Below are positions 3,400 through 60,370 of a stretch of DNA of 64,000 bases, in pieces. The stretch is from the IMG/VR virus record IMGVR_UViG_3300042940_002333; one strand, 5' to 3'. This DNA comes from an uncultured virus (IMG/VR IMGVR_UViG_3300042940_002333) (Duplodnaviria; Heunggongvirae; Uroviricota; Caudoviricetes). A program made the translations under genes and the position numbers. The stretch's first letter is position 1. Each line of letters opens with the position of its first letter. Under the pieces are notes generated by a model. It was not told where the DNA came from, did not search any database, and was given only the letters and a program-made list of their open reading frames with translations.

Positions 3400-6300
3400 A
3401 TGGATAATAACCAAATGCCCGGTGGACTACTCGTAGGTAACAGCCACTCAAACGGAGGAATTAAAATTAAAACCCCAGAGGGGCAAATCGAAGCCGAGGG
3501 CGGTGAGGTTATAATCAATAAACGCATTTTATCGTCAGACGAGAAATACGTCTGTGAGGGTACCCCTCGCGAAATGACTTCCAAGATCAATGAAATGGAG
3601 GGTGGCGTTAGCTGGTCTGCAGGTGGATCTTGCAAAATAGTTAAGAAATCAGAAGATGGAAGTGTTATAGGAGAAGAGGAAATAAACAGGGCTCCAGAGG
3701 GTATTGTTGTCCAGTACATCAAAGACGGCAAGCTCCGTTATATTTCGGCAGATACCAATGACCAGGCAGAGCTGATCCACGACGCTCTAAATGATTTCAA
3801 AGAAGGGTTTATTACCAAAGAAGAACTAACAAACACACTTGAGAGTTATCAGTCCGAAGACCAAGAATTAGACGCAACGACAGAAATTATTGGTGGGGAA
3901 AAATACATTTATATTCCATTCTATGAGGGCTGGGTTCCGTTCTTCAATAAGGAAGCAGTAAATCTTGACGAAAAAGCCGGCGATGGTAAAAACATTATTC
4001 GTGAAGACGTTACTTTCGAGAGAAATGGCGATGGATGGAATTTCCATTACAAAGATAGTTTCGGAACTGAGGCAATGGGAGTGATCCGAAAAAACACACA
4101 AACAGGAGAGTTAGATTATATCATTGAAGATACTCAGGGTAGTTTTAATGCTGATGGCGACAGAGAAACTTCCAATAAAGTGTATAAAGCTCTTGAAAAA
4201 GAACTTGCCAACTACTCAGAAAGATTTGGTAATACTGGCGTAAAAAGAGCATCTTTCGGAATGATGCTTAACAGATGGTTTGGACAGAAAAGTGAGGTTG
4301 ATATAAGTGATGTTAAGGATAACCTTTATCTTTTACAAACTGAACTTGAAAACATAAGAACCGAATATAGATTTGGTGGATTGTCTTCAAAGGAGTATTC
4401 AGATGAAAAGAAAGAAATTATAGGCAGATATCAAAAGCATATTGATCAAGCTCAGAAACTTGGTATTCCTATAAGATCAAACATTTTATATACGCCGTCT
4501 TATATAGCAGAAAAGGGAAAAAGAATCCCTCGTCAAGTTGCACAAGATGCTCCAGTGAGAGAGGAAATGTTGCCTGGTCAATTCCGTATTTACTCAAAAA
4601 CAAATCGTGAGTATGACGAATGGATAGGATCTGAACAAGAAATAAATGAATACATTAACGAAGTTGCTGGCGGAGATTTCCCTGCTAATGCTACTATCGA
4701 TGAAAAGCTCGACTCATTAAACCTTGCCAGACAAGCTCGACAAGAGGATGAAATGGCAAGAATGGGTAAAAGCATTATGCGTACACAGGACGCTGCTAAA
4801 CGTCCAAGCCCGTCAGTAAGTGCCACTATTTACCCAGCCGGTACCAGAATGGAGGGTAATGACGGAAATATGTGGGAAATTGCAGTAGCCTCTAACGGTG
4901 TTCGTAGATGGGCAAGGATAAAAGGTTTTGAAGACGGAACTGAATTAAATGCTACAAAATTAAAACCAGAAACAAAACTTTATGTTGAGGTAATTGAGAT
5001 AAACAACAGTAACAGCGAACAATCTGCTGTTCTTTGCTATAAATTTCATAAAGACGGAAAGCACATTGCTGACGTAGATTTTGATATAGATTTTGACGTT
5101 GAGGAAGAAAATGAATATAGCGACTCTTGGAACGCAAGAACTGAAAGTGTTTTTCAGAAAAAAACAGGCACAACAGAGTATTTTTTTGCCGACAGTTTTA
5201 GTTTAAGAGAAATTTTTAATACAGAGGGTGGCGACATTACTTTAAGTCCAGAGGATGTTGATAGAATAAACCTGGAGTTTAGTGCTATTTTCAAAAGCAA
5301 AATAAAGGCAGAGTTAATTGATAACTTAAAAGACATATACCTTACCGACAATCAGTTTCAAAAAATAATTAATAAACCTAAAGCCGCCGACGGACTTAAT
5401 GTTGTTTCTTCTTGTGGGTGTAATCACGCTGCAGACGGAATGGAGATTGAACCGTATTTACAAAGCGAATTAAAAGCGGCGGGTTTTGATCCGTCAAAGT
5501 ACACGGCTGAACAAGCTGACCTTATTCTTCAACCGGCAATAGCTCCAGAGAACTACTTTATGGATGGGGAAATTTCTCACGCCAAAGCAAAAGTTTACTG
5601 GAAGCAGAAATTAGCAAACGCTGGATTAAGCTCTGCCGATATAGCAAAAGCAGTTAGGGCATTCGCCGCCGACGGAGTTGAAGTATCCGACATTGACTTT
5701 GAAATTAAATCTTTAGAAGTTGAAAAAGAAATGTTGAAAGAACAGCTAATGGAAATTAGTATGGGTGTTATACCTCGTTCAAGTAAAAAAGGCATTGAGG
5801 ATAAACTTGGTGATATTAATGATAAGATCAATAATCTTCTAAAAAAGAAATACCCAAACTTTAAATCTGGGAAAGCCGCAGACGGAAAGAATTTAAAAAC
5901 TATCAGCCGTAAGACCAGAGAACATTGGTTCAGTGAAGCTGGGGAACTTGGCGACGCTCCTAAAGGCACAGCTTACAATATGATAATGAAAGCTATGGCT
6001 AAAAAGTTTGGCGCCGAGAATATGGAACTGGTCGGGCAAGATAAGGATCATTATATCTATGAGCTTGAGGGCAACCCGATGATGATTTCGGCTACAACTT
6101 CAATGCTTCACGAAGAAAGAGGCTTGGATGTTGAAATGTACGGTCGCAAAACAAGAGTGCATCTTCCGAAATTAATGATAGACGCACAAATGGCTGGTGT
6201 TAGATTTCCGTTGATCACCCCGTATGGAAATGGCGGTGGGGTTGAAACGGAAGTTAATTATTCAGTTGAATTAAATAGCAACGAAAATGAATATTATGAA

Positions 6301-9300
6301 TTTCCGACAAAAGACGAAGCGTTTTCTTTTGCAAGAAAAAAAGAAAGAGAGGGTAATGACGTAACAGGCGTTTACGAATATAATAATAACGAAATGACAA
6401 AAGATTTGTTAAGAGCATTTAATAATTATTCTATTGGTTTAAGAATGTCTGCCAAAAAATACGCCAATGGCGGTGGAATAAAAACTGATTTAAACGAATT
6501 AGAAAATACTGAACTTAGAAATGTATTAATTTCTTTTTGGAATGATTTTTTTAATAATCATATCGGCAATTATCTATCAATAGAAAAAGAGAATTATATA
6601 TTATCAAACATTGATAATGTATTTGTTATTGTTAGAAATGAAGATAAAGGCAATTTTAGTGATGTTGAAAAACAAAACATTGATAGGTTTTTAAGTCCTT
6701 ACTTTCACTCAGATAAAAAACCTTTGTTTACTGATTTTTTTAATAGTTATGAAATAAAGGATAATAAAATCATAATCTATATTAAGGATATGTACGCCAA
6801 TGGCGGTGGGATAAATAGCAGATATTTAGATACTATTTCTGATGATAAAAAATCTAAGATATTAAAAAACATCGCTGATCATTATGGTATTTCGGTATCA
6901 GCCGCAGAAGAAGAAGTTAAAGATGCAGATGCAGAAATGCTGTATGAATATATTGCTAATGACCAATCATTGAGAATGGATGTTTACAATGATTTTGAAA
7001 GCAATGAGTACGCAAACGGCTCTACTGTTAAATACGCTAAAGGCTCTACTGTTAAAGGTGCTAAATTTAATTTAGAAGAATTTAATGATTGGTGGGACGA
7101 CGGTGGTCAAGAAACTGCTGATGAAGAATACGGAAAATTAGTAACCAAAGCGTTATTAAAAAAACAACCAAGTTATCCGAATGAAGCAAACGCATACTCG
7201 GAAGCATTATGGGAATTAGCAAAAAAAGACAATGCACATAAAAAATACGCTAAAGGCTCTACTATTGAAGGTGGTGGCGGTGTCGGAAAAGAATGGGAGG
7301 TTGAATTTTATTACTTGCATAGGGATGGTGCTGACGATAGTGCTGACCAGTATGAAAAGGTTAAGATTATAGCCAATAGTGCCGAGGAAGCAGAAAAAAA
7401 AGCAGCCATTCAACACGAAGACTGGTATAGCAATGGGAATAACGGAAACTATCATTTTGAAGTTACAAGCGTAAAAGAAATCAGTGGCGTTCCGAAAGCC
7501 TGGAACGGCAGAAGTTTTAGAAAATCTTACGGATCTGGCTTCTCGGGAAGAACGAACCGTGGAGAGTATTTAGGTAACGGCGTGTGGGGAGACGACGAGG
7601 GTAATCGTTGGGATAAAGACGGAAAGACTATTTCTGGTTATGGAAAGAGTGGAAAAACAAGAGAAGAAGAATACGAAGAAAAATACGGAAAAAAAAGCAC
7701 TGCTCCTGATCCTGTTACAGAAGATGAGAAGATTACCAAAGCAAATTTAATTGCCAGTCGTATCGCGGCCAAAAAAGGTCAGCCAGTAACTCAAAAACTT
7801 GTTGAATGGGTATTGAAACAAATGTCAGAGGGCAAGTTCGCTGCCGACGGAAAAGAAATCAAAGCACTACTTGAGCAGATCGCAAGTGACTTCAGTAGCT
7901 TCCGACCAGGCGGACAAAGAGGTAATGTAATAGTAGACAAAGACAGTGTTAGTAAGGAGTTCCGTGATTTAGGAAACTGGGAAACTGATTACGAGAACCC
8001 AGACTATGAGGAGGGTGACGAGGAAGATAACGATTATGAGATCTGGAAAGATGAGGACTTATATGAAAAGCAATTTAAAGATTGGGCAAGTAAACAACCT
8101 TGGTTTAATAAAGTAGACCTTGAAGTTACTACCGGCGAAAAGAACTGGGCATATTTTTATATTACCCCAAAAGATAAAGCAGAACACGGAAAAGAAATCA
8201 GTAACGAAAGTCTTGAGGGGAAAACCGTAAGACTTATTAATATGCCTGACGATCCGCTTCCTGTTCCTGCCGGCACACTGGGTAAAATAAAAGGCGTTGA
8301 TGACGCAGGTCATATTCTTGTTAGATGGGAGAACGGAAGCGGATTATCGCTTATCCCCGGCGTTGATGAATACGAGATCATTGACATTGCAGCTAAAGGA
8401 AAAAAGATTGGCGTAATATCAAATTACTCAGATTTTTATAAGGTGTTAGTTGACCTTGCACACAAATCAAACTCTGGAGAGGAATTTAAAGAAAAACTAT
8501 TCGCATTTGATCCTGATAGAAAATATATTCCCAAATACTACTCGGACTTTAGAAGAAATGTTATGGATGTGTCCGACGAGCAGTGGGTACGCGCACAACG
8601 CGAAAACAAAATGGCGGGGCTGGCAACCTGGGAGGGTGGATATGAAATTCTAAAAAACAAACCGTTGGCGGCAGCAAATGGTAGACTTGTGCCTGTTGAT
8701 TTAACCAATGCTACTACTGACGAGAAGTTTGACGGAATAGTTGCCGCACTTGAGAAAGCAAACATTAGCGCAAGAGTTAAAATTTTAAGCAATGCTTTTG
8801 GTCACGCAGATAAAATATACGTTGAGCTTGGACACGATTACAGAAACGATAGAGCTGTTGAAAAGGCTATTGAGAAATACACAGGTCTTCATTATGGAGG
8901 ATTTGGAAGAAATAAGGATTATATTATGTGTGCCAACGTAGGCGACGCAGGAAGAAAATCTGAACGTATTTACGGAAAGAAAAACATTTCCCGTGCATTA
9001 ATGGCTAACGGTGGTGGAGTTGGCGGCGAATACGAGGTTATTCTTTATAATCGTTGGGGTGACGAAAACCATTCATATAGTAAACCAACGCTTAAAGAAG
9101 CTGTTGAGTCAGCAAATGGTGACAAAAAACTTTTTGAAGAAAATGGCGAGTATTATGTAATTATGCACAACGGAGAAATCGTTGAGAGTTCAAAAGAGGA
9201 TTTCCGAAAATGGTTTGGTTTAGATAAAGCCGCAAACGGAACGCAAGTGAAAAACAAATACGCACAAGCTAAAGATTACTGGCTTCAACTTTACGAACAG

Positions 9301-11244
9301 ATGACTCCGAAGCAACGCACTATTTGGCACGGAGAGTGGAACAGAATAAATAAAGACAATGACTGGGTTACAGACGAACACGTTGCTGAATACATCCAAG
9401 GAGAAATCCGAGAACAATTCGATGGTAATTTTACATTAAATAGAACTGACGTTACCGGTCCGAGATTTTTTGATTTAGCTTATAAATATATTGCTTATCG
9501 TGGTGCTATCAAAGAACCAGAGTTCTGGGATGACGTTGCTAGCGACGGCACGGAAGTTGGAGATTCATACTACATAATAAGAATGTGGGATACTGACGAG
9601 GACAAAATGAAAGGTGTTTCTCCAGAGGAAGCTAAATACACAACAAGAAGTGAAGCGATACGCTGGGCAAATCACTATCACTACGAAGAGAACTTTGGAG
9701 TTGTTGAGGTAGAGGACGAGAATGGAAACCGAATAATGACTCTTGACGCTTATGCAGCAGACGGAAAGCAAGTAGATCAAGCTGATTATCTGACCAACGC
9801 TATTTTAAGCGTTCTGGATCTTCAAAGTCATATGTCTGCTCACGGAAACACTATTACTATTCACGGAAGCAAATACACTTACTACTCTCACACCCAGTAC
9901 AACATAAGAGTTACCGGTGACAGAGGTGCAATCTACAACATCATTCCTTACACAGCATCTTCTTCGGCAGGTAATCTTGAGGGGTCCAGCTTCTTTGCAC
10001 TTATCCGTCAAAAAAGACCGTCAGAAAACTTCGCTCTTACAAAAGAGGGTGAGATTTACGACATTGCCGAGGATGGAACTTCTATTTCTGAAAAAAAAAA
10101 CGATAGTGTAGCTGGCGACGGAGCGGTTGCACCAGAAAACCTACCAAACCGATCAAGACACGCTTCACCTATCAAAATTGTTATATTTAAACACAAGAAC
10201 AATCCTAGATTGGTGATCACTGTAAAAGCATACCCAAATATGTCCATTGCCGAAATAGATAATCCTCAAAACATTCGCTTCCCATATGTTGTAGGTCAGG
10301 TATTAAATATGGGCCATAAGAACTGGGCGTGTATGAACAACTACCTCGTGAACGACGAAGATCCTTGCCCAGAGAAAAAGATTTTCGGAATGAGAGCAAA
10401 GGATATTCCGCAAGGACACCCTTTAAGGCATATTTATCCCGGTAAGTTTAAAGCTGACGGCGGTGGAATTGAAAAGGCCGCGAGAGGTCTAAAAATATCG
10501 ACATTAAGAGAAGAATTAAATAACTACAACACCAGAATCGATGAGCTAGAAGCTGAATTGAAAGATCCAGAAATCAGCGATAGCAGAAGAACTGAAATTG
10601 AGGTAAACTTATTGCCAGATCTTGAACAAGGAAGGCACGTTAACCTTTCGACTTTGAGGGGAATACTTCGAAGACGCTTATGGGGTACAGGCAGAGTTGC
10701 TCAAGGCGATTCTCCATTAATAAATTCCATTGGCAACGATATGCCTATTCACGGAAAGGGTTACACAAACGGCGGTGGCGTTTCGCCTGGTATGACTACC
10801 CATTACATAGTTTTTTCCCATAACGGAAGAGAGAAATTACGAAAAGATTATTATAATATAACGGAAGAAGAAGTTAGAAAAAAACAGGACTCTTATGGAT
10901 ATAATGACGATGGTGATGAAAAAGAATATAAAGAAGTAAAGTTTTCATCGTTCAAAGACCTTGATTTACGCCCATTTGAATTTAGCATTTTCGTTGAAAA
11001 ATACTCTGACGGCGGTGGGATTGAAGAAAACAGCGATCTTAAAGGTAAAAAAGGATACATTAAGGATAGAAAAAAAGAAGCGAGTGGTCCTACTTTATAC
11101 TACATAATGGTTGATGACGAACCCGTGTATCGAGAAGTTACGAGGTCATATGTTCCTGGTCACCCAATCAAAGAGTGGGAATCTTATTTCGATTCAGAGA
11201 AAGCGGCGAAAGATTATGCTAATAAAATAGGTGTTGTATTATAA
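3400..11244 (+). CDS. giant multi-module polyvalent protein / putative polyprotein 1 (2614 aa)
   Basis: About 30 AxDG/YANGGG-type linkers separate mostly 50-150 aa modules. N-terminal GxSHxxGGI...EAEGGEVIINK motif, RPSPS...GNDGNMW module (4801-4920), DUF4314-like module (about 8215-8385). Confidence 0.85.
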   Translation: MDNNQMPGGLLVGNSHSNGGIKIKTPEGQIEAEGGEVIINKRILSSDEKYVCEGTPREMTSKINEMEGGVSWSAGGSCKIVKKSEDGSVIGEEEINRAPEGIVVQYIKDGKLRYISADTNDQAELIHDALNDFKEGFITKEELTNTLESYQSEDQELDATTEIIGGEKYIYIPFYEGWVPFFNKEAVNLDEKAGDGKNIIREDVTFERNGDGWNFHYKDSFGTEAMGVIRKNTQTGELDYIIEDTQGSFNADGDRETSNKVYKALEKELANYSERFGNTGVKRASFGMMLNRWFGQKSEVDISDVKDNLYLLQTELENIRTEYRFGGLSSKEYSDEKKEIIGRYQKHIDQAQKLGIPIRSNILYTPSYIAEKGKRIPRQVAQDAPVREEMLPGQFRIYSKTNREYDEWIGSEQEINEYINEVAGGDFPANATIDEKLDSLNLARQARQEDEMARMGKSIMRTQDAAKRPSPSVSATIYPAGTRMEGNDGNMWEIAVASNGVRRWARIKGFEDGTELNATKLKPETKLYVEVIEINNSNSEQSAVLCYKFHKDGKHIADVDFDIDFDVEEENEYSDSWNARTESVFQKKTGTTEYFFADSFSLREIFNTEGGDITLSPEDVDRINLEFSAIFKSKIKAELIDNLKDIYLTDNQFQKIINKPKAADGLNVVSSCGCNHAADGMEIEPYLQSELKAAGFDPSKYTAEQADLILQPAIAPENYFMDGEISHAKAKVYWKQKLANAGLSSADIAKAVRAFAADGVEVSDIDFEIKSLEVEKEMLKEQLMEISMGVIPRSSKKGIEDKLGDINDKINNLLKKKYPNFKSGKAADGKNLKTISRKTREHWFSEAGELGDAPKGTAYNMIMKAMAKKFGAENMELVGQDKDHYIYELEGNPMMISATTSMLHEERGLDVEMYGRKTRVHLPKLMIDAQMAGVRFPLITPYGNGGGVETEVNYSVELNSNENEYYEFPTKDEAFSFARKKEREGNDVTGVYEYNNNEMTKDLLRAFNNYSIGLRMSAKKYANGGGIKTDLNELENTELRNVLISFWNDFFNNHIGNYLSIEKENYILSNIDNVFVIVRNEDKGNFSDVEKQNIDRFLSPYFHSDKKPLFTDFFNSYEIKDNKIIIYIKDMYANGGGINSRYLDTISDDKKSKILKNIADHYGISVSAAEEEVKDADAEMLYEYIANDQSLRMDVYNDFESNEYANGSTVKYAKGSTVKGAKFNLEEFNDWWDDGGQETADEEYGKLVTKALLKKQPSYPNEANAYSEALWELAKKDNAHKKYAKGSTIEGGGGVGKEWEVEFYYLHRDGADDSADQYEKVKIIANSAEEAEKKAAIQHEDWYSNGNNGNYHFEVTSVKEISGVPKAWNGRSFRKSYGSGFSGRTNRGEYLGNGVWGDDEGNRWDKDGKTISGYGKSGKTREEEYEEKYGKKSTAPDPVTEDEKITKANLIASRIAAKKGQPVTQKLVEWVLKQMSEGKFAADGKEIKALLEQIASDFSSFRPGGQRGNVIVDKDSVSKEFRDLGNWETDYENPDYEEGDEEDNDYEIWKDEDLYEKQFKDWASKQPWFNKVDLEVTTGEKNWAYFYITPKDKAEHGKEISNESLEGKTVRLINMPDDPLPVPAGTLGKIKGVDDAGHILVRWENGSGLSLIPGVDEYEIIDIAAKGKKIGVISNYSDFYKVLVDLAHKSNSGEEFKEKLFAFDPDRKYIPKYYSDFRRNVMDVSDEQWVRAQRENKMAGLATWEGGYEILKNKPLAAANGRLVPVDLTNATTDEKFDGIVAALEKANISARVKILSNAFGHADKIYVELGHDYRNDRAVEKAIEKYTGLHYGGFGRNKDYIMCANVGDAGRKSERIYGKKNISRALMANGGGVGGEYEVILYNRWGDENHSYSKPTLKEAVESANGDKKLFEENGEYYVIMHNGEIVESSKEDFRKWFGLDKAANGTQVKNKYAQAKDYWLQLYEQMTPKQRTIWHGEWNRINKDNDWVTDEHVAEYIQGEIREQFDGNFTLNRTDVTGPRFFDLAYKYIAYRGAIKEPEFWDDVASDGTEVGDSYYIIRMWDTDEDKMKGVSPEEAKYTTRSEAIRWANHYHYEENFGVVEVEDENGNRIMTLDAYAADGKQVDQADYLTNAILSVLDLQSHMSAHGNTITIHGSKYTYYSHTQYNIRVTGDRGAIYNIIPYTASSSAGNLEGSSFFALIRQKRPSENFALTKEGEIYDIAEDGTSISEKKNDSVAGDGAVAPENLPNRSRHASPIKIVIFKHKNNPRLVITVKAYPNMSIAEIDNPQNIRFPYVVGQVLNMGHKNWACMNNYLVNDEDPCPEKKIFGMRAKDIPQGHPLRHIYPGKFKADGGGIEKAARGLKISTLREELNNYNTRIDELEAELKDPEISDSRRTEIEVNLLPDLEQGRHVNLSTLRGILRRRLWGTGRVAQGDSPLINSIGNDMPIHGKGYTNGGGVSPGMTTHYIVFSHNGREKLRKDYYNITEEEVRKKQDSYGYNDDGDEKEYKEVKFSSFKDLDLRPFEFSIFVEKYSDGGGIEENSDLKGKKGYIKDRKKEASGPTLYYIMVDDEPVYREVTRSYVPGHPIKEWESYFDSEKAAKDYANKIGVVL

Positions 11245-14996: not shown

Positions 14997-15117
14997 TATC
15001 AAATTTGTTATGAAAAACGACTACGATTTAATACATTTACCAGAATTATCCTTAACCTATTCTTCATTAAAAAAATACTTAAAAAATTTATATAACCTTA
15101 ACCTAAAAACAGACAAA

Positions 15118-18100
15118 ATGGGATTTTTTAGCTTTAAAACATCAGATACAAAGAAAACAATTTACAATGACTCCTCAAGAAGAGGCCCGTCGCCCTCTCC
15201 AGTGTATATGATTACCGAAGATGGTAGATCTTGGAGAGAAGATAGTTATGGTGGTTACGGAGAGTTTGGTGGAAAAGATATTTTTGAACTTATTGCTGAA
15301 ATGAACGGTGGTAAAACCCGTGATGACGCTTGGAGCATAGTGTTCACACAAGGAATTGAGAGAAACGGTAAGAAATACTATCAGGGAATGTATCCCGGTG
15401 CCGATTTTATGAATTACCAAAATGACAAAATTAAAGCAGAGGGCTTAACGGCAAACGAGCTTAGAGAAAAGTACGGATGGAAAAATTTTGGTGGAGGTAT
15501 GGATTTTGCGGAAGCAGCAGAAGAGGGCTTTAAACTACCTAAGTTGGTAGAGCATCTTCCAAACAAAGCAGACTGGGATAAAGTTTGGAAAAAACTTCCT
15601 TACCCTAAACACGCACCTAACCAAGGTTTAGCTGATGGTGGTAGCGTTGGGGATGACGAGTATCCTGACTTTATTGATAGTGAAGCAGCGAAACACGGAA
15701 CAAGAGTTCGCAGAAAAAGACCTTTATATGCTATAATGATGGGGAAATACTCCCAGATGGACAATCCTCAATACGTTGAGGTTAGTGGCGAAGATATGGA
15801 TGAAGCTATGGCTAAATTCAAAGCGGAGGGCGTAGACGCAAATCCAGCAAACATACATTTCTCTAAACAACCACCATATTATTACTCTGGCGGTGGCTAT
15901 GCGGCCAACGGGAAGTCTGTTCGTGATCTTGACCAAGAAGAAGATGATGAATTTGCTGGTGCTGTTCCGATTGAGCACGTTCCGTCAATTAAAAGCACAA
16001 CGCTTTATTTCCAAGAGGGAACATCAGACAAAGAATACCATATCCAATTAAGAGAATTAATGCCGGGAAGATTTATTGTGAACTTCCAGTACGGTCGCCG
16101 TGGCGGGCCACTTCAAAGTGGAACTAAGACAACAACTCCCGTTTCGTTACAAGAGGCTGAAATGATATTTGAAAAATTGAAGCACGAAAAAGAACGCAAA
16201 GGTTATCACGAGGGAATGGCTGGTGGAGGAAAGATAAGTGATCTTGATAGCACTACTCAGAGTTTAATAAACGAAATAATTGATTATTTAGAAAAAGAAT
16301 TTGGCGGTAAGGTTACAGCGTCAAGAATGACCGGTTCAATGAAAAATTATATTAAATTCAGCAAAAGAGGTGGTTCTTTTTATGACTTTAATGAACAATG
16401 GACAAAAAATCCAAAATATAATAAAATACTACAAGATAAATTTGGATACGATGTATTTATGAGTAATTCTAGTATTAATATCGAGTTATTGGGTTACGTT
16501 AGAAAAGATCAGTTCGCTTCTATTAAAGTTGCAGCCGACGGTAGTGGGGTTGGTTTGAGTAGAGATATTTATAGTATTGGAGATGAAGTTGTGTATGGTT
16601 GGAATGGAAGATATTATAAAATAGGAAAAATAAATTCGAGAGTTGATGAAAACACCTACTCTATTTTAGAAAATAATGGAAATAAAATAACATTAAATCG
16701 TAGAGATTTTGATTTAGCACCATCATCAATAGACGATTATGCTAAAACATTAGGTTTCTACGCTAATGGCGGTGGTATTCCGAATAACTACAAAGGTAAG
16801 AATGCTCATCAAGTATGGGATGCGTTGAACAAAAAGCAACGTCATCATTTCTTATTTGACCACGAAGAGGATATAGTAGCAAGATTAACAGAAAGGAACG
16901 ACAAATCCGTTGAAGAAGTTATAGAGTTACAAAATAAATCTTATATGAATCTTCCAGAGGCAGTAAAAGATATTATTGCTGTTCATATTGTAAGTGGTCA
17001 ATACACCAATGGCGGTGGAGTTGAATTTGATATTTACGACTTTGACAAAAAAATGGCATTAATCAACTTAGATATGATTTATGAATATTCTGTTAAACTA
17101 GATGATATAGTTACAGAAGAAAGTAGTATTGAAGAGTGGATTAAAATGAAACTTACAAAAGTAGAGCAAAACATAGCTGATATTAAACATTCACTTTCAG
17201 GTTGGGAAAAATTTGAAAAAGGCGGAATGATTTTCAAAAAACAGCTTTTACATATTTCAAAATATGCTAAAGACTTAATTAATATGATTAACTCAGGTTC
17301 TAAATTAATGAGTTGGCAAGAAAATAAATTAGCTATTAGTGCTGATTACATAGATGGAATATATCATCATTTGGACTATATTCGTAAAACAAATTTAGAC
17401 AAACTAGATGAGTACTTAGGTATTTACGCTAATGGTGGTGGAGTAGGAAAAATAGAAGTCGGAGATGCTTTTCAGCCAAGTGGTTTACCATACTCTCTTA
17501 TTGTTCAATCAATAAATAAAGGTATTGCTGAATTACATAGAACCTTTTATAATTTAAAAACTGACTCATCTACGTTAGGATTTAAAGAATTTAGTTTAAC
17601 AGTAAGTGAAATTCAACGATTAGTCGATGGAAAAGAATGGAGAAAAGTTAATGTAAAATTACAAGATAATAGCCAGTTGAAATACGCCAATGGTGGTGGT
17701 ATTGGAAAAGAATATAAATTAAGAGCAGAAGGTCTTAATGATTTTATTAATTTTCTTGGAACTGGAATCTATTTTGATATAAAATGGTTTAAGGTCGAAA
17801 CCACCTCTGGACCTGACGTAATAGTTACATTTTCAACAAATTTATCGTTAAAACAAATAAAATCAAATTTAGAGCAAGTTCAAGATTCCCACGTTATGTT
17901 AGACACATTAAAACCTGTTAATGAATATACAGGAGAAAGAATGGCCGATGGTGGTGGTGTTGAATCTAAGTATTACGTTATGGATGCTAAAAGTGGAGAG
18001 GTTGTTTCAAAAGGTTTTGATACAGAAGAAGAATCGAAAGTTGAAATGTATAGAATGTTTGAAGAAACTGGAAATAGATTTTTAATTCAAAAAACGATGG

Positions 18101-20007
18101 CTAATGGCGGTGGGGTTAGCGATAAAGTTTACATTGACTTCCTTAATAAAGACAAAAGACACCAGCAGGATAGAAAATACTTTGATACTTACGAAAAGGC
18201 AGTCAAGTGGGCTCGTGCAAATTTTGAAAGATTCCATCCTGATATGATTAAGTACGTTAGTTACGCTGCCGATGGTGGTGGAGTTGGAACAAAGTGGACT
18301 TACGAGATCAAGGTATTCAACGATCCTAAATACTACGGACACGGAAGAACTTGGGATACTAAGGAAGAAGCTGAACAAGCCGGGAAAGAAAAACTAAACA
18401 ACTGGATGAACGCAGAAGATTTCCGTGTTGTTCAAGCTACCGAGGAAGCCGCAAGAGGAAAGGTTGTTCCTGGTAAAGTTGGATATTTTGTCCAGTTACA
18501 ACAAGATACCCCAAATCAAGTAAGATACTTACAAATAGGTATAAACACAGAAGGTAGTTTTACCGGTATGGCTTATGACTATGTAGGTGGTGGAGCATAC
18601 GAAACACAATGGCTATTGAATAACTACTCGGTAGATGACGAGGGTGTTATGGAACCAGAAGAGCAGGAAGCTGCCGTTGCCGAATGTCTTACTGAAAAGT
18701 ACGGGAAAGATTTTTCCGACAAGGTAATGACTGGCATAAACAAGATGTTTGCAGAGTTATTCACCTATGAAGATAATGGCAATCTTACTACAAGTTTATC
18801 TGATTTTGCCGCCAATGGTGTTACTTCTGAATACGCAAGTTTCCCAAGAGTAACTATCGGAAACACTATTTTTAGCAGTGTTTATAACAACAGTGGTATG
18901 GCTAAACAAGGAAAGAAAGTTGCTGCTAAATCACGAAACGAAAAAGTTTACTTAGCGTTGCTTGAAGAGGCGAGAGAAGAAAAAGCCTGGGCAGAAAAAA
19001 TGAGTAAAGATAAAGAATGGATGAGTTCGGCTTCTAATGTTTCTAAAGATATGGTAGCGGAAGCCTTAGATAAATCAGCAGAAGAACTTGCTAATACATC
19101 GTATAACTATTTAGAATATCGTGCCCATATGACTGACAAAACAGGTTATCATACAGATAAACCGTCAAAAGAAAAGTGGGAGAAGTTAAGTGGCAGGAAA
19201 ATCGCCTCTGACGGAATGTTTATGGAGGGAGAGTTTGATAAAATTGTTGCCGACTTAAAGAAATACCTATCAACTGTTCCTTACATCTGGACAAAAGGAA
19301 ATAAATCTTACGTTCCGATTGAGGGATGGCAGTATGCCGCAGCTCTTATGGGAATGAACTCCCGCGTGGTTGATATTAAGCCTGTTACAGAAAAACAAGG
19401 GTGGATGGCAACAGCAGAAGTTGTAAACCAAGAGGGCATAGTTGTTTGTACCGGTTTTGGATATGTAGATCGTAGCGAAACTAAATGGTCAAAGGCAAGT
19501 GAGTATGAATTAATTTCATTCGCGCAAACCAGAGCCGTTTCCCGTGCATTGAGAAATTGTATCAGTTACCTTATCAAAGCTGCTGGATACTCAACTACAC
19601 CGGCAGAAGAAATGTACGGATTAAGTGATGTAAAAAAATCAAGCCCTAATTTATCAAAAGCAAGTCCTATACGCCCAATAATCGGTGTTGACGATACAGA
19701 TGGTTATAGTCGCCCAGAGTACATTGAGCCTGTTCAACCACCGATTGTAAAAGTTGAAAAGAAAGATCCAGCTAAGTTCGAGGTTATGCTTACAGAGGTG
19801 TGGGCAGAGGCTAAAGGAACTAATATCGTTCTTGTTTCTCCGAAGTTTATGACAGAGGTTGAGGAGTCGTTAATGACTGGTCTATCCGAATTAAGCTATG
19901 AAACTATGTTAAGAGAGATCCTTGACTGGTTAATCGATAATAATATCATATTGAGAAGCAAGCCTTTTATGAAAAAAATAAAACAATCATTCACTGAAAA
20001 TAAATAA
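15118..20007 (+). CDS. polyvalent protein / putative polyprotein 3 with WGR and SSAP-like domains
   Basis: Likely start MGFFSFKTSDT at 15118 after an A-rich leader (ORF open from 14899). WGR-like SDKEY...QYGRRG...EKERKGY (about 15990-16215); C-terminal SSAP-like AQTRAVSRALR...TPAEEM; many YANGGGV/AADG linkers. Confidence 0.82.
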   Translation: MGFFSFKTSDTKKTIYNDSSRRGPSPSPVYMITEDGRSWREDSYGGYGEFGGKDIFELIAEMNGGKTRDDAWSIVFTQGIERNGKKYYQGMYPGADFMNYQNDKIKAEGLTANELREKYGWKNFGGGMDFAEAAEEGFKLPKLVEHLPNKADWDKVWKKLPYPKHAPNQGLADGGSVGDDEYPDFIDSEAAKHGTRVRRKRPLYAIMMGKYSQMDNPQYVEVSGEDMDEAMAKFKAEGVDANPANIHFSKQPPYYYSGGGYAANGKSVRDLDQEEDDEFAGAVPIEHVPSIKSTTLYFQEGTSDKEYHIQLRELMPGRFIVNFQYGRRGGPLQSGTKTTTPVSLQEAEMIFEKLKHEKERKGYHEGMAGGGKISDLDSTTQSLINEIIDYLEKEFGGKVTASRMTGSMKNYIKFSKRGGSFYDFNEQWTKNPKYNKILQDKFGYDVFMSNSSINIELLGYVRKDQFASIKVAADGSGVGLSRDIYSIGDEVVYGWNGRYYKIGKINSRVDENTYSILENNGNKITLNRRDFDLAPSSIDDYAKTLGFYANGGGIPNNYKGKNAHQVWDALNKKQRHHFLFDHEEDIVARLTERNDKSVEEVIELQNKSYMNLPEAVKDIIAVHIVSGQYTNGGGVEFDIYDFDKKMALINLDMIYEYSVKLDDIVTEESSIEEWIKMKLTKVEQNIADIKHSLSGWEKFEKGGMIFKKQLLHISKYAKDLINMINSGSKLMSWQENKLAISADYIDGIYHHLDYIRKTNLDKLDEYLGIYANGGGVGKIEVGDAFQPSGLPYSLIVQSINKGIAELHRTFYNLKTDSSTLGFKEFSLTVSEIQRLVDGKEWRKVNVKLQDNSQLKYANGGGIGKEYKLRAEGLNDFINFLGTGIYFDIKWFKVETTSGPDVIVTFSTNLSLKQIKSNLEQVQDSHVMLDTLKPVNEYTGERMADGGGVESKYYVMDAKSGEVVSKGFDTEEESKVEMYRMFEETGNRFLIQKTMANGGGVSDKVYIDFLNKDKRHQQDRKYFDTYEKAVKWARANFERFHPDMIKYVSYAADGGGVGTKWTYEIKVFNDPKYYGHGRTWDTKEEAEQAGKEKLNNWMNAEDFRVVQATEEAARGKVVPGKVGYFVQLQQDTPNQVRYLQIGINTEGSFTGMAYDYVGGGAYETQWLLNNYSVDDEGVMEPEEQEAAVAECLTEKYGKDFSDKVMTGINKMFAELFTYEDNGNLTTSLSDFAANGVTSEYASFPRVTIGNTIFSSVYNNSGMAKQGKKVAAKSRNEKVYLALLEEAREEKAWAEKMSKDKEWMSSASNVSKDMVAEALDKSAEELANTSYNYLEYRAHMTDKTGYHTDKPSKEKWEKLSGRKIASDGMFMEGEFDKIVADLKKYLSTVPYIWTKGNKSYVPIEGWQYAAALMGMNSRVVDIKPVTEKQGWMATAEVVNQEGIVVCTGFGYVDRSETKWSKASEYELISFAQTRAVSRALRNCISYLIKAAGYSTTPAEEMYGLSDVKKSSPNLSKASPIRPIIGVDDTDGYSRPEYIEPVQPPIVKVEKKDPAKFEVMLTEVWAEAKGTNIVLVSPKFMTEVEESLMTGLSELSYETMLREILDWLIDNNIILRSKPFMKKIKQSFTENK

Positions 20008-20009
20008 CT

Positions 20010-22178
20010 ATGCCAAAATATAAAATTGACAAGAAAGAAGCAGTAGAGGGCATTATTGAGGAGAATTTATTTTCCCAGCCATTTATGGTAGAAATGTTCG
20101 GAACTGACATTGAATATGAATTGGATCACGATACCTCTCCAGATACAGACGAGGCGAGAAATCCTATTTTAAAACAACATATTTTAGTTGAGATTGAAGC
20201 CAGCAAGCAAACCATAGAATTAATTGAAGCCTCTGTTGACAACTTTGAAGCCTCAGTAAAAAACTGGCTAAAACAATATGGATTAGACTCTTACTTTGAC
20301 TCAATCTACACAAGCGAGGGTGATGTAACTATATCCATTGATGTTCCAGATCAGGACGATTCTTGGTCTCCAGAGAAATACGCAGCTAAAGGTCTTGAGG
20401 TAGACGGAAGTTATATCCCAAGAGTAATCCTTGGTGCTATTGATCGTTTAAAGAACGCGCAAGATCTGCCTGCCGGTGTAATGCAGGAAATGGTAGATAA
20501 GGTTGTGGACGAAATACGAGGCGCTGGAGAAACAAACCTTAACGAGTCGTATGTATTTGTGGATTTTCTTGAAAAACTCTCTGACGAGGTTAGAAAGAGT
20601 ATTAAAGGGGAAACTATTGACTACCTTAAATCCCACCCATCAGATAATACAGGCTTAGGGAACACTCTTTCTGTTATTGATACCACTATTATTCAATATA
20701 GCGAAGATAAAATTTATGCCGAGTATGAGCATAAAATGAAAGTGATGAAAACACTCCTTGACGCCAGGGCTAAAGCTATTAAAAAAGAAGTTCACGATGC
20801 TATTGACGCTGGCAATAAATCCCCAATCAGTTATGTGATCACCTCGGCTATCCGCCCAAAGCCGTCAAGAGCAGAGGACGGTAAAGACCTTGGGAAAACA
20901 ACTGTCTCTTTTTACAAATGGGGTGTTTACCAAGGAGAAGAAGAAATTGACGCAAAAGATCTAACCCATATGGTTCAGCTCGGGCAATACGAGTTAGAGG
21001 GATTTGATATTCGTGACGAAGATATTGACAAAACATTTTATGCCGAAGAAAGCGACATTGACGATACCAACGTAGATGAAGATGGTTATGGAGTTAAGCG
21101 TGCATACGCTATTGAAGAAGACAAAGCAAAGAATGGAGCGCCTATATCTAACGCAAAGGTTGATAAAGCATACGAAAAAGTAAATGCACTTTTCCAATCG
21201 ACCGTTGAAATGTATGGTAACCTACGCCTTAGAAGAGACGACCATTACTCAGATCTCGTTGAATTGCTTGAGAATGTTGAAATAGGTTATTATAAGGAAT
21301 CTCCAGATAGCGATTATCAGGAAGAGTTGGTAAGCAATAGTTTTACAATGACCGCAAAAGAAGCGATAGATCAGCTTAACAGTTATTACGAATACATAAT
21401 GGAGGATTTCCCGAACAAAGAGATTTTTAAAGTTACAATGTCTGGAAATACCGAAGTGAATAACTACAACAAAGTTAGCAAGCCGTATAAGCAAGATGTT
21501 TATGTAATAGCTACTACTCGATCCGAAGCTGAAAGTGAGGCTAAACAAATAATGGCCGGTACTCATCCAACTCAGAACGGAAACAAAACGATTAATTCGG
21601 TAATGATTGGAAACGAGTCTTTCGGAATAGACGGAACAAAAGCCACGGTTAGTTCGGTAAATAAATATAAGGATGGTGGTAACATCGCCGCAGACGGGAA
21701 GGGCCTGGATTCATTTTATACAGAGCGATTAGAAGATATTAAAGATAAAATGAAAGACAGACCTAACAAAAGTGTTAGCACTGGCAAGCAGGATGGCTAT
21801 CCAGAATATAAGGCTAACTTCGAGAATGCTCTGTTTAATAAATACGGCGTTATGATCGGCGATACCGATATTGAGGACAACTCAATCAAAGAGGCTTTCG
21901 ATAAAAACGAAAATGTTGATAACCTTGTTAATTACCTCGGCGAAAAGCACCAAATTACGCCAGTAGCAGCACAAGGCACGGCTGTTGAAATAAAAAGTCC
22001 AGTCAAATCAAAATCCGCTACCGCAAAAAGTTATATTTGCATTATCAAGGACAGATTCGGTAAAGAGATCGGCTCCTACGAATTAGATTACGCCGATGAT
22101 GATTATGTAAGCACTTTCCTTTCGGCAATAGGCGTAAAGCTTAAAGCAGGAGATACTAAGGAAATAGTTGAAGCGTAA
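20010..22178 (+). CDS. polyvalent protein / putative polyprotein 4 (722 aa)
   Basis: Linkers YAAKGLEV, RAEDGKDL, KAKNGAPI, YKDGGNI, IAADGKGL, VAAQGTAV; contains a paralog of the next gene. Confidence 0.8.
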   Translation: MPKYKIDKKEAVEGIIEENLFSQPFMVEMFGTDIEYELDHDTSPDTDEARNPILKQHILVEIEASKQTIELIEASVDNFEASVKNWLKQYGLDSYFDSIYTSEGDVTISIDVPDQDDSWSPEKYAAKGLEVDGSYIPRVILGAIDRLKNAQDLPAGVMQEMVDKVVDEIRGAGETNLNESYVFVDFLEKLSDEVRKSIKGETIDYLKSHPSDNTGLGNTLSVIDTTIIQYSEDKIYAEYEHKMKVMKTLLDARAKAIKKEVHDAIDAGNKSPISYVITSAIRPKPSRAEDGKDLGKTTVSFYKWGVYQGEEEIDAKDLTHMVQLGQYELEGFDIRDEDIDKTFYAEESDIDDTNVDEDGYGVKRAYAIEEDKAKNGAPISNAKVDKAYEKVNALFQSTVEMYGNLRLRRDDHYSDLVELLENVEIGYYKESPDSDYQEELVSNSFTMTAKEAIDQLNSYYEYIMEDFPNKEIFKVTMSGNTEVNNYNKVSKPYKQDVYVIATTRSEAESEAKQIMAGTHPTQNGNKTINSVMIGNESFGIDGTKATVSSVNKYKDGGNIAADGKGLDSFYTERLEDIKDKMKDRPNKSVSTGKQDGYPEYKANFENALFNKYGVMIGDTDIEDNSIKEAFDKNENVDNLVNYLGEKHQITPVAAQGTAVEIKSPVKSKSATAKSYICIIKDRFGKEIGSYELDYADDDYVSTFLSAIGVKLKAGDTKEIVEA

Positions 22179-49733: not shown

Positions 49734-50462
49734 ATGAAATACGAAGTAGATTTAGAAGAAAGACCAACACTGATAAAGTTCAAGGTGGACATAAAAGGCC
49801 CGCAGTTGATTACTATTGTCGGATTTGATCCAGACCATAAAGATACCGTATATTTCGCAAGAACAGCTCGCGTAACGCAAAGAGGACAAGTGCTTGAAAT
49901 ACCTATGCCTATCGCGCCAAAGAGATTGATACTTGAAATTAATCCAGAAAATCGTTCTTTCGGTAGTTATTTGAACATATATGACATTGTAGTTTTAGAT
50001 TTACCTGCAACTACGACTGTGTTCCCTGAGAAAACATTGGAGTTTTACAACTTCCTTAAAAAGTTCGCTAAAGAAGCAGGTTATATCGATCCAGGGTTTT
50101 ATGTAAGCAAGGATGAGAATTATGTCATCTGGGCGAAAGAAACTATGGACAAAGAGGGAACGCCGGCAAAGGTTAATCGTAGAACAGGCGTGGTTAAGAT
50201 TAGCTTGAGCAAAATGAGAGAATATACTGTGTTTATGCGTATTTTCATTGGGCTTCACGAATTTTTCCACTATGCCTTACAAACTACCGATGAGGTTTCT
50301 GCCGATATGGGTGCTGCAAAAGTTTATTTAGCAATGGGCTACCCTAAGTCAGAAGCGAATTATTCGATGACCAAGATATTTGACAATAGCCCTTCAGCAT
50401 TAGAGCGTGTAAAAGTTTTGGATAAAGTTATTAAAGAAAGTGATTACGCGAGAAATCGATAA
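49734..50462 (+). CDS. zincin-like metalloprotease (HExxH)
   Basis: FIGLHEFFH...DEVSAD (third-ligand ExxAD pattern); ends with KESDY. Confidence 0.7.
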   Translation: MKYEVDLEERPTLIKFKVDIKGPQLITIVGFDPDHKDTVYFARTARVTQRGQVLEIPMPIAPKRLILEINPENRSFGSYLNIYDIVVLDLPATTTVFPEKTLEFYNFLKKFAKEAGYIDPGFYVSKDENYVIWAKETMDKEGTPAKVNRRTGVVKISLSKMREYTVFMRIFIGLHEFFHYALQTTDEVSADMGAAKVYLAMGYPKSEANYSMTKIFDNSPSALERVKVLDKVIKESDYARNR

Positions 50463-59986: not shown

Positions 59987-60370
59987 ATGATATTACAGAA
60001 ACAGACCATAGGAGGACTTGATGAAAACATACAAGGTAATTGTATGGCGACCTGTATTGCTTGTTTATTGGATATGCCCGTATCTAAAGTTCCTAATTTT
60101 GTGACTAAGCCAAGGACATTTGATCTGCTTGGAGAGTTCCTGACCGAAAGAGGGTACAAATTTAACGGGTTTTGGTATTACCCGCCTCCAGATTGGGCAA
60201 AGAAATTTAATGGGGTTGATGGATTTGCGATTATCGGCGGGCCAAGCCCTCGCCCTTACGTTAATTCACACGCAGTACTTTATAAAGACGGGAAGCCGTT
60301 TTGGGATCCGCACCCAGACGACACATTTACACTCGGAATAAAAAGAATTTATTTAATAACAAAGAAATAA
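59987..60370 (+). CDS. papain-fold, C39-like cysteine peptidase candidate
   Basis: Q...GNCMATCIACLL...SHAVLY...WDP gives a Cys-His-Asp arrangement. Confidence 0.55.
   Translation: MILQKQTIGGLDENIQGNCMATCIACLLDMPVSKVPNFVTKPRTFDLLGEFLTERGYKFNGFWYYPPPDWAKKFNGVDGFAIIGGPSPRPYVNSHAVLYKDGKPFWDPHPDDTFTLGIKRIYLITKK

Follow-up and report, generated by a model that had tools for sequence, protein, structure and literature searches.

What are the four giant proteins that this phage encodes side by side, and what is the short peptide that keeps recurring along them? The DNA analysed, here called the window, is a stretch of 64,000 nucleotides from an uncultured tailed phage of lake water that probably infects a member of the Bacteroidota, and the ORF listing places four adjoining genes at 3400-22178 on the plus strand (about 6,250 aa summed). 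Protein A (3400..11244, +; ORF call and translation) has 2614 aa and about 25 modules, with a Pfam DUF4314 domain at aa 1605-1660. Protein B (11244..14996, +; 1250 aa) carries DUF5824, ART-PolyVal, DUF5754 and DUF6929/DUF6910 modules. Protein C (15010..20007, +) has 1665 aa if translation starts at the ATG at 15010. Its reading frame is already open at 14899 (14899-20007, 1702 aa), and the database form, of 1665 aa, fits the start at 15010. It holds a WGR module and a series of small ones, and its C-terminal module offers a lead to the Rad52/Sak type. Protein D (20010..22178, +; 722 aa) matched no Pfam family. About forty small, mostly unrelated modules are chained in four giant proteins through one standard short joint, and the genes encode polyvalent proteins in the sense of Iyer et al. 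(2017, PMC5512222).

How uniform is the joint, and could it be accidental? At every module boundary there is a standard eight-residue junction peptide, with one register and two versions: K-A-A-[DN]-G-x-x-[VI] (type I) and K-[YFM]-A-[NKD]-G-G-G-[VI] (type II). Type I is exemplified by A-A-D-G-L-N-V at 5383..5403 (+), with K in front, and type II by Y-A-N-G-G-G-I at 6460..6480 (+; TAC GCC AAT GGC GGT GGA ATA) and Y-A-N-G-G-G-V at 17425..17445 (+), which closes a widely shuffled module. An earlier note on this DNA had separated two linker variants; they are a single motif in a single register, and P0007 has AADGTTV where its relatives have YANGGGV. A strict pattern (A.[DN]G..[VIL] or.[DN]GGG[VI]) gives 34 in-frame matches, two of them overlapping at one site: 18, 3, 10 and 3 in proteins A to D, those of protein D all of the AxDG kind. 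This confirms the earlier description of four consecutive ORFs as module chains split by a recurring linker. Its figure of about 30 linkers in ORF 3400 (protein A) alone was too high, since to the 18 strict sites only three of the form YA[NK]GST[VI] are added and a loose pattern finds 28.

The proteins are rich in glycine (8%), which would suit an origin of the motif in chance, low complexity or recent tandem duplication, but matches are almost absent from shuffles and from the other five frames. All three plus frames of the region together hold 35 strict matches and the whole remaining six-frame translation of the window holds 3, and shuffled proteins have fewer than one each. A scoring matrix built solely from the joint sites of relatives and then run on the window's ORFs recovers 21 sites in ORF 3400 and ORF 14899 (shuffled mean 0.26) and none in the other ORFs (13,874 aa). 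Consensus joints were likewise not found in the other ORFs of a related 73.6-kb phage contig, G001. Against duplication, the modules between joints are not repeats, and against chance, hundreds of proteins from other samples carry the motif as well. The shuffles, frame counts and relatives-trained matrix refute an accidental motif, the probability of which is negligible. Across 184 related metagenomic proteins (128,748 aa), 550 type II sites, spread over 123 of the 184, compare with 4.4 in shuffles, and 25 type I sites with 4.0; close homologues of protein A have 5-9 type I sites apiece. Positions other than the anchors are still strongly biased in the relatives (K 0.31 before the motif, Y/M/F 0.77 in position 1 and G 0.75 in position 5). 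No description of this junction peptide was found in the literature searched.

Do the joints mark the edges of folded units? They bracket all Pfam domains found in the four proteins. The DUF4314 module (8212..8379, +) lies between AEHGKEI and AAKGKKI and has stand-alone homologues of 73-100 aa. ART-PolyVal, the ADP-ribosyltransferase of polyvalent proteins, occupies 12471..12851 (+; PF18760, E 3.5e-14), and the WGR module 16012..16212 (+; PF05406, E 3e-6), with joints at aa 335 and aa 440. These three modules had been named earlier, and Pfam confirms them with joints on both sides; DUF5824, DUF5754 and DUF6929 were detected additionally. The SSAP-like domain proposed with them is a lead only, without a Pfam or PDB-sequence match, although its Atlas neighbours include an SSAP_Sak cluster at 0.90. 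When aa 1010-1380 of protein A were modelled with AF2, four compact domains resulted and six of six joints lay in coil, five of them in or near segments with pLDDT below 50 and the other at a dip to 71; the joint at 6460..6480 is a low-pLDDT coil (model residues 12-18). In these six joints and at the Pfam domain edges, the linkers lie outside folded domains. The modules are small, fold independently and mostly deserve to be called unrelated: all-against-all phmmer of 53 pieces gave E<1e-3 for one of 1378 pairs and E<1e-2 for seven, and the few weak pairs are confined to about six small modules and have alignments that include the joint itself. The earlier view of polyvalent proteins made of autonomous modules with a stereotyped peptide between them is supported.

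How have such chains been assembled? Among the 150 best matches, 78% of the 300 alignment ends fall within 8 aa of a joint against 29% for the null, a share reached by 3 of 2000 random placements, but two or three modules dominate this statistic and the ends are therefore not independent. One module of 141 aa (16993..17445, +; BLAST boundaries, flanking sequences, alignment), with joints on both sides, recurs in more than 25 other polyvalent proteins, where its position varies widely. Many modules are free-standing genes in other phages. The module at aa 1481-1600 of protein A (7840..8199, +) forms complete stand-alone proteins of 107-159 aa elsewhere (P0158, P0131, P0145, P0148, P0184, P0144, P0123, P0178). 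In the stretch searched, 22 of 149 matches are no longer than 170 aa, and complete stand-alone proteins match at least 5 of the 12 modules, as the earlier note had anticipated for its pieces.

That note missed a further feature, conservation of the joint DNA at synonymous sites. GGT encodes the middle Gly of 14 of 15 joints, compared with 37% of 134 control Gly-Gly pairs (p 7.6e-6). Among the joints of the window and G001, two genomes with core proteins that share only about 30% identity, 14 of 20 have GGC-GGT-GGN, as opposed to 8 of 68 control GGG tripeptides (p 1e-6). The Asp codon is GAC at 9 of 10 A-A-D-G sites against a background of 0.37. Part of this constraint could reflect a recent spread of modules along with their joints. 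Eight of the 9-10 long-contig differences across the region form one patch (18270-18312) that starts inside a joint (three of four runs). In the short proteins P0090, P0086 and P0130 a joint lies about 10 aa from the C-terminus, and P0021 and P0039 have a joint remnant at the N-terminus; with nothing there to release, these look more like recombination scars. The peptide is likely an in-frame recombination joint, encoded by a conserved stretch of about 21 nt that puts all modules in the same phase.

How might the chains leave the virion? By sequence comparison, protein A begins with a domain that otherwise ends the tape measure proteins of Bacteroidota phages, a connection absent from the earlier note. 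This GxSHxxGGI...IEAEGGEVIINKR domain (3400..3699, +; GxSH domain below) is homologous to their C-terminal domain, with 26 phage records matched by tblastn, all with Bacteroidota hosts, and blastp E values of 1e-12 to 3e-18 against tape measure proteins identified by PHROGs. Of 26 close polyvalent homologues, 17 have it at their very N-terminus. In tape measure proteins it is flanked by KAADGMLV and KFAxGGxI, that is, by both joint types. Protein A itself matches no PHROG tape measure family and is without a tape-measure body, and none of the window's genes could be recognised as encoding a capsid, portal, terminase or tape measure protein. The tape-measure-type start of ORF 3400 indicates the tail rather than the capsid.

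Is there an enzyme that could cut the joint? Of two ORFs singled out in the earlier note, ORF 49734 (49734..50462, +) now appears to be a conserved HExxH zincin, a core gene of the phage group with an N-terminal beta-sandwich followed by a zincin-like domain. H175, E176, H179, E187, D191 and E207 are invariant in 26 sequences. The AF2 model (pLDDT 86.6) has weak Foldseek matches to the minigluzincins 4jiu and 4jix; the only PDB fold match at E<=0.001 is a carbohydrate-binding module against the N-terminal half, and Pfam M48 is matched only at E 0.16. The protein is a candidate protease on the strength of the invariant HExxH and the weak fold matches. The G001 homologue sits between two polyvalent genes that carry joints, in a block with tail fibre, hub and endolysin genes; no homologue was found in 50,697 phage records, which include phages whose tape measure proteins carry the same peptides. 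The other, ORF 59987 (59987..60370, +), is a small Cys/His protein (phrog_5845) with a papain-like or C39-like lead. Some depositors label the family as a cysteine protease (3 of 25 rows among the matches listed, for homologues in Acinetobacter phages), and Peptidase_C39 is present in 11% of the members of one Atlas cluster nearby. It has no Pfam or PDB-sequence match, and no clan CE or C39 family is significant.

Where would cutting take place, and by what? ASFV pp220 and pp62 are cut at GG|X, and poxvirus core proteins at AG|X, by clan CE proteases. These polyproteins, too, have a short Gly-containing site at each boundary, and the earlier note invoked them for the present ones. In a specific version of that idea, capsid-packed chains would be cut at GG|X or AG|X by a similar cysteine or head-maturation protease. 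The G-G-G within the joint and the annotations around ORF 59987 would fit, but we regard this as unlikely. The ASFV and poxvirus substrates are structural proteins of eukaryotic viruses, whereas here no clan CE protease is recognised, type I joints (A-A-D-G-x-x-V) have no G-G, and the ORF 59987 family is common in Acinetobacter, Caulobacter and jumbo phages. The motif is missing from all other ORFs of the window and G001, which leaves no tie to head maturation substrates, and the sole virion-related homology is to the tail, not the head. Could the chains instead process themselves, with the GxSH domain as a cis-acting protease flanked by its own sites, or by breaking spontaneously at Asn-Gly or Asp-Gly? 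Both joint types flank this domain in tape measure proteins, an arrangement known from viral polyprotein proteases; no other part of protein A's relatives is as well conserved (60-85% identity), its His, G-G and E-A-E-G-G-E hardly vary across 39 sequences, and position 3 of the joint is N or D in this window. In the relatives, however, Lys is commonest at position 3 (K 0.33, N 0.26, D 0.14), so the joint can do without Asn/Asp chemistry. P0275 has Arg in place of the Ser of GxSH, the domain (about 70 aa) matches no Pfam or protease family, and G001 has joints while the domain was not found in its 73.6 kb (CheckV 62% complete). Self-processing is very improbable.

Perhaps, then, the chains are never cut, the joint being a short hinge and in-frame crossover point and the full-length beads on a string acting as such, perhaps after delivery. 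This is a serious contender, though on balance we doubt it. It agrees with the synonymous conservation, with the homology breakpoints at joints, with terminal joints where release would be pointless and with the difference patch starting within a joint; nothing ties a protease to the motif, and N4 virion RNAP, ArdC and TraC1 are described in PMC5512222 as delivered uncut. A modelled joint with only about 6 coil residues between ordered elements would also be tight for a protease acting on a folded chain. A hinge, on the other hand, needs no protein-level keeping of K-[YFM]-A-x-G-G-G-[VI], and at position 1 Y, M and F, with codons up to three bases apart, alternate while the flanks are without any conservation. 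Tape measure proteins, which as a class are known to undergo trimming, have the same peptides on either side of a terminal domain, and in TP901-1 Tal processing has been proven at a junction motif of the NGGG type (PMC11409707). That the joint is a proteolytic release site, cut after delivery into the host, is a possibility against which we lean only slightly.

How do known systems compare? Iyer, Burroughs, Anand, de Souza and Aravind described polyvalent proteins in phages and conjugative elements as giant chains of many unrelated small effector-type domains, ART-PolyVal included, for which they predicted delivery alongside the DNA and possible processing (PMC5512222). That paper ascribes processing to a zincin (MPTase) domain inside the chain, gives 2-15 domains in its abstract and has no occurrence of the word 'linker', whereas here none of the four chains has an HExxH, one chain has about 25 modules and a standard junction peptide stands at every boundary. 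In Tal, the tail-associated lysin of TP901-1 and Tuc2009, the motif NGGGNSGGGD between domains of a virion tail protein is proteolytically processed, at one site in one protein, beside cell-wall-degrading domains (PMC11409707). The present chains have about 40 sites, flanked by Y/F/M-A and V/I, and the window yielded no M23-type peptidase. In T5 and lambda (gpH), tape measure proteins are cut near the C-terminus (PMC10038345); T5 pb2 yields pb2* and pb2C, and the cut piece stays in the tail and is expelled first at infection. The likeness lies in protein A's first domain and its flanking joints; the T5 cut follows Arg, and protein A has no tape-measure body. For Bacteroidota-phage tape measure proteins, no documented cleavage was found in the literature searched. 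Virion-packed takeover or anti-restriction proteins are well known. The T4 internal proteins are processed by a phage protease and injected. So are the Dar proteins of P1 (PMC5512222). These are single-function proteins, each with its own targeting signal, in contrast to the present chains of dozens of modules, and the T4 and P1 protease sites occur in head proteins too, a pattern that the other ORFs of the window and G001 do not show.

What would this mean for the phage? The explanation that we prefer as a whole, virion-loaded cargo chains with an in-frame recombination joint that is also cut, stands just short of an even chance. It is somewhat probable that the N-terminal domain of protein A would bring the chains into the virion, from which they would exit via the tail with or ahead of the DNA. 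Crossovers in the conserved joint of about 21 nt would swap, add or remove modules in frame, a step that the shuffling and the joint DNA make quite probable. More tentatively, the exposed joint may also be cut, by a phage protease with the zincin ORF 49734 as first candidate or by the activity that trims tape measure proteins, which would free about 40 small takeover or anti-defence proteins.

Proteins A-D are encoded by four tightly packed ORFs, all on the + strand: protein A (3400-11244, 2614 aa, with the Pfam family DUF4314), protein B (11244-14996, 1250 aa, with DUF5824, ART-PolyVal, DUF5754 and DUF6929/DUF6910), protein C (14899-20007, with WGR) and protein D (20010-22178, 722 aa, with no Pfam family). 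Protein C is 1665 aa long in the protein collection, which fits a start at the ATG at 15010. Only a few stretches of the four chains are recognised by Pfam. What kind of proteins are they? The ART-PolyVal domain of protein B (PF18760, E 3.5e-14) scores above the curated Pfam cut-off, and it is a signature domain of the polyvalent proteins described by Iyer et al. 2017 (PMC5512222). As in that class, unrelated effector-type domains share one chain: there are six Pfam domains and, when the chains are divided, 53 mostly unrelated pieces. The description of the modules as unrelated in the earlier note is thus mostly borne out, as only 1 of 1378 pairs matches at E<1e-3 and 7 do at E<1e-2, the matching pairs being confined to about six small modules. 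An in-chain zincin (MPTase) is frequent but not obligatory in the polyvalent class of Iyer et al. 2017; no HExxH or HxxEH occurs anywhere in proteins A-D, whereas a separate HExxH gene is present at 49734. A search of 5.8 billion clusters gave protein C 33 relatives, each with just one or a few modules in common (35-88% identity). The C-terminal module of protein C is a lead for an SSAP (Rad52/Sak/Erf-type annealing protein), the earlier note having listed an SSAP-like domain in the chains; its Atlas neighbours include SSAP_Sak (19% of a cluster, score 0.90) and Rad52 (0.88), and it matches phrog_19042, a PHROG without assigned function; a search for an SSAP family gave no Pfam match at E<=1 and no PDB-sequence match.

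The modules are separated by a short joint which occurs as K-[YFM]-A-[NKD]-G-G-G-[VI] (type II) or K-A-A-[DN]-G-x-x-[VI] (type I). The strict pattern has 34 in-frame matches in proteins A-D; across the three + frames of the region it is found 35 times, the entire rest of the window's six-frame translation has 3, and shuffled proteins give less than one strict match each. The two linker variants of the earlier note are both real, but they share one register and form a single motif (position 1 Y/F/M/A, 2 A, 3 N/D/K, 4 G, 5-6 GG or any, 7 V/I) and not separate elements; the related metagenomic protein P0007 has AADGTTV at the very site where its relatives have YANGGGV. The estimate of about 30 linkers in protein A proved too high, with 18 strict and 3 YA[NK]GST[VI] sites counted (28 with a loose pattern). 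A scoring matrix built from relatives' sites alone, which is blind to the A-A-D-G sites less used by those relatives, detects 21 joints in proteins A and C (0.26 in shuffles) and none in the other ORFs of the window, 13,874 aa in total. Among 184 related proteins (128,748 aa) there are 550 type II joints against 4.4 after shuffling, carried by 123 of the proteins, and 25 type I joints against 4.0; each close homologue of protein A has 5-9 of type I. In a residue profile of the relatives anchored on A, G and the final V/I/L alone, the unanchored positions are biased too: K precedes the joint (0.31), position 1 is Y (0.50), M (0.14) or F (0.13), position 3 is K, N or D with Lys commonest, position 5 is G (0.75), and conservation stops after position 8. 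Judged from sequence, such a profile marks a short linear motif, not a generic flexible linker. No published description of the joint was found by motif or in the literature on polyvalent-protein cargo, proteolysis or linkers, supplements lying outside the search.

Other repeats and boundary elements were seen as well. The shuffled 141-aa module of protein C often ends, in P0021, P0025, P0033 and other relatives, in an extra conserved K-[MV]-G-[NS]-R-A ahead of the joint, perhaps a further type of boundary element. Two further ORFs of the window (50477-51610 and 61294-62571, both +) have runs of 7-8 glycines, and an 810-aa ORF (L004:13589-16021, -) of G001, a related 73.6-kb phage contig, has many [ST]-x-I-G-G-G repeats; all three may be fibre or structural proteins, and none has a PHROG or Pfam assignment. 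No phage record gave a tblastn match to the ORFs at 50477 or 37842.

Do the joints coincide with real domain edges? They bracket every Pfam domain, including DUF4314, ART-PolyVal and WGR, in agreement with the earlier observation that recognisable domains start and end at the linkers. An AlphaFold model of protein A aa 1010-1380 (52-sequence alignment, mean pLDDT 78.7) has four compact domains with all six joints in coil; segments with pLDDT below 50 are residues 1-15, 197-211 and 278-287 of the model, and at the joint at residues 123-129 the pLDDT dips to 71 between blocks of 96 and 95. Linkers inside folded domains, named in the earlier note as evidence against its reading, were not seen for the joints tested, because the six modelled joints lie in coil and the Pfam domains are bracketed by joints. 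Foldseek gave no match with E<=0.001 for the four-domain model among viral predicted structures, and only weak single-domain likenesses, to phage proteins of 60-78 aa. Homology breaks at the same places. With protein A aa 940-2139 as query, phmmer found 1363 matches at E<=1e-3 among 1.84 billion representatives, and 78% of the 300 alignment ends of the 150 best fall within 8 aa of a joint, compared with 29% for random joint positions; 3 of 2000 random joint sets reach 78%, a figure to be read with the ends not being independent, as a few modules dominate. A joint is crossed by 34 of the 150 best alignments, and 22 of 149 matches are at most 170 aa long. The expectation that single pieces match complete stand-alone small proteins holds for 5 of the 12 modules in this stretch. 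The single-module proteins begin with Met and carry at most one joint, at the C-terminal end; they include five forms of aa 1481-1594 (P0158, P0131, P0145, P0148 and P0184, 107-127 aa), P0127 (70 aa), P0090 and P0152, P0102, and DUF4314 proteins. The 141-aa module at 16993-17445 occupies more than 10 different places in other chains and is bounded by joints at both ends in every case.

The joint is conserved in its DNA as well, and this synonymous-site conservation is new here. Type II joints follow the consensus TAC GCY AAT GGC GGT GGN RTT. Of 15 joints, 14 have GGT as the codon of the central Gly, compared with 37% of 134 Gly-Gly pairs elsewhere in the window (p 7.6e-6), and GGC-GGT-GGN is used by 14 of 20 joints of the window and G001, against 8 of 68 other GGG tripeptides of both genomes (Fisher p 1e-6). 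GAC is used by 9 of 10 A-A-D-G sites against a background of 0.37, a purely descriptive comparison. Could this be a simple preference for C-ending codons? The joint Asn is mostly AAT and the Tyr TAC, and therefore it is not. The joints of G001 use the same codons as those of the window even though the core proteins are only about 30% identical; the codons of the Elizabethkingia phage TCUEAP1 tape measure gene differ from them. We read the codon pattern as a sign of joints kept alike through recombination and acting as crossover points, and the view of joints as in-frame recombination points is well supported overall; recent spread of modules along with their joints would also contribute to the codon conservation.

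Lake-water metagenomes offer one possible glimpse of such an event. On long contigs, 8 of 9-10 differences lie in one patch (18270-18312) in three of four runs, a single case; in the main-depth contigs of the runs coded X4, X8 and X19 there are 8 substitutions in these 43 nt, with the remaining 18.8 kb nearly identical. The patch starts within the joint at protein C aa 1122-1129, turns ...DGGGV into ...DGAEV, and looks like a conversion tract. In a further run (X14), a minor 130-nt variant contig with 9 differences (8380-8449) is centred on the joint AAKGKKI after DUF4314. Compared with the region, contigs of the four runs show six joins with 5 of 12 endpoints in or near junction DNA, which could reflect joint-joint likeness because the matching sides are just 20-42 nt at 85%; loose contig ends do not cluster at joints in these runs. 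The architecture, its boundaries, its spread and the shuffling at joints are established.

How would such chains reach the host? The N-terminal ~90 aa of protein A (GxSHxxGGI...IEAEGGEVIINKR) have matches solely in Bacteroidota phages among 50,697 phage records, and these fall inside genes annotated as tape measure protein. The domain is near the C-terminus in ten proteins, of which four of the five scanned match tape measure PHROGs, and it is the extreme N-terminus in 17 of 26 close polyvalent homologues. In all seven proteins with ends inspected, both joint types border it, KAA[DNR]GM.. at one end and KFAxGG.. at the opposite end. Cultured phages with the domain in their tape measure proteins include Elizabethkingia phage TCUEAP1 and Bacteroides phages EMB1/2. 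Protein A has the terminal GxSH domain of this Bacteroidota-phage tape measure type; as for a tape-measure body, PHROGs yields no tape measure family for proteins A-D. The sequence likeness suggests a link, new here, between protein A and the phage tail through a terminal domain. The tape measure proteins of T5 and lambda are trimmed close to the C-terminus, and the cut piece in T5 remains in the tail and is expelled at infection (PMC10038345); processing has been proven at an NGGG-type motif where domains of TP901-1 Tal meet (PMC11409707). With these precedents joint cleavage and passage through the tail become more likely, though they prove neither. We regard loading of the chains into the virion through the tape-measure-type domain as somewhat probable.

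Are the joints cut, and by what? Proteolytic cleavage is quite possible, though we would place it a little below an even chance. A short conserved site at each boundary, as in polyproteins of the ASFV and poxvirus type, is what the joints provide, and for a virus-encoded protease, of clan CE or another dedicated kind, there are two leads. ORF 49734, a zincin-like candidate, has 49 homologues, with H175, E176, H179, E187, D191 and E207 invariant in 26 aligned sequences; in its model (pLDDT 86.6) a beta-sandwich precedes a helical domain that weakly resembles the minigluzincins abylysin and jannalysin, and in G001 the homologue of ORF 49734 has a joint-bearing polyvalent gene on either side. No cultured phage record contains a homologue of ORF 49734, its score against Pfam M48 reaches only E 0.16, and its alignment finds no match in IMG/VR. 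JGI metagenome contigs hold 18 loci of the zincin, mostly on contigs of 1-12 kb, too short to judge co-occurrence with polyvalent genes. ORF 59987, a Cys/His protein of phrog_5845, is a papain/C39 lead only: homologues of it bear the name cysteine protease in some deposited records, Peptidase_C39 is present in 11% of the members of one Atlas neighbour cluster, and the family is widespread among unrelated phages. Prohead-protease cargo of the T4 internal-protein type offers another comparison; there the site also marks capsid, scaffold or protease proteins, whereas here the window's other ORFs have 0 sites in 13,874 aa (with capsid genes not recognised) and the other ORFs of G001 have no consensus joint. 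Spontaneous breakage at Asn-Gly or Asp-Gly was dropped because Lys is the commonest residue at joint position 3 in relatives. An M23 Gly-Gly peptidase in the window was likewise dropped as an idea: by eye, ORF 56626 and its G001 counterpart are without M23 His motifs, and both match endolysin and baseplate-hub PHROGs.

What element carries these genes? No capsid, portal, terminase or tape measure gene was recognised in the window, and 24 coded lake-water runs from 2020-2024 contain the region almost unaltered. The relative G001 is a tailed phage (62% complete by CheckV), and its polyvalent genes share a block with its tail fibre, hub and endolysin genes. Neither ORF 3400 (megablast against the 50,697 phage records) nor protein C (against IMG/VR) has a match, and a module alignment finds no copy in 185,579 species genomes and therefore no sign of a prophage or ICE copy there. 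In the window, proteins A-D are flanked by an SNF2-family helicase on one side and a methylase-helicase giant on the other. The SNF2 domain of the former (13-2832, +) is spread over 620 aa by an insert that is probably an intein, given its LAGLIDADG and Hint matches. The latter (30904-37827, +) is a methyltransferase and helicase protein of 2307 aa which matches a DarB-like anti-restriction PHROG and has no junction peptides. A P-loop ATPase (42615-43535, +) weakly matches Zot (E 1.3e-4) and terminase (E 9e-5), and many small ORFs lie downstream of it, a few with weak membrane-protein family matches. A DUF5856 protein (23819-24301, -), with the PHROG name starvation-inducible regulator, belongs to a small minus-strand block in which two ORFs have weak endolysin/peptidoglycan-binding matches. 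G001 has two GIY-YIG homing endonuclease genes (L001:8978-9943 and L003:2135-2986), one of them directly upstream of a polyvalent gene.

Since polyvalent proteins were described, how they are built, delivered and possibly processed have been open questions. One speculative and, as a whole, rather unlikely reading would have phages run a cargo-cassette system with the joint as its universal in-frame 'splice site', at once a ~21-nt DNA joint for in-phase swaps and an eight-residue release signal. Co-infecting phages would then swap, add or drop modules in phase via the conserved DNA, a protein-coding analogue of integron cassettes; the peptide would be a release signal taken over from the site at which tape measure proteins are trimmed, and one tail-loaded chain would bring dozens of separate small effectors into the host. 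For cleavage the joint would be a defined site, with two candidate proteases, the tape-measure-type terminal domain suggests a route into the virion, and if the joint is cut, custom cargo could be loaded into phage particles. A standard joint lets hundreds of giant metagenomic proteins be parsed into functional units, many of them small phage orphans with a possible anti-defence role. Its synonymous conservation suggests that the DNA itself guides module shuffling, which would explain the repeated in-frame fusion of unrelated genes.
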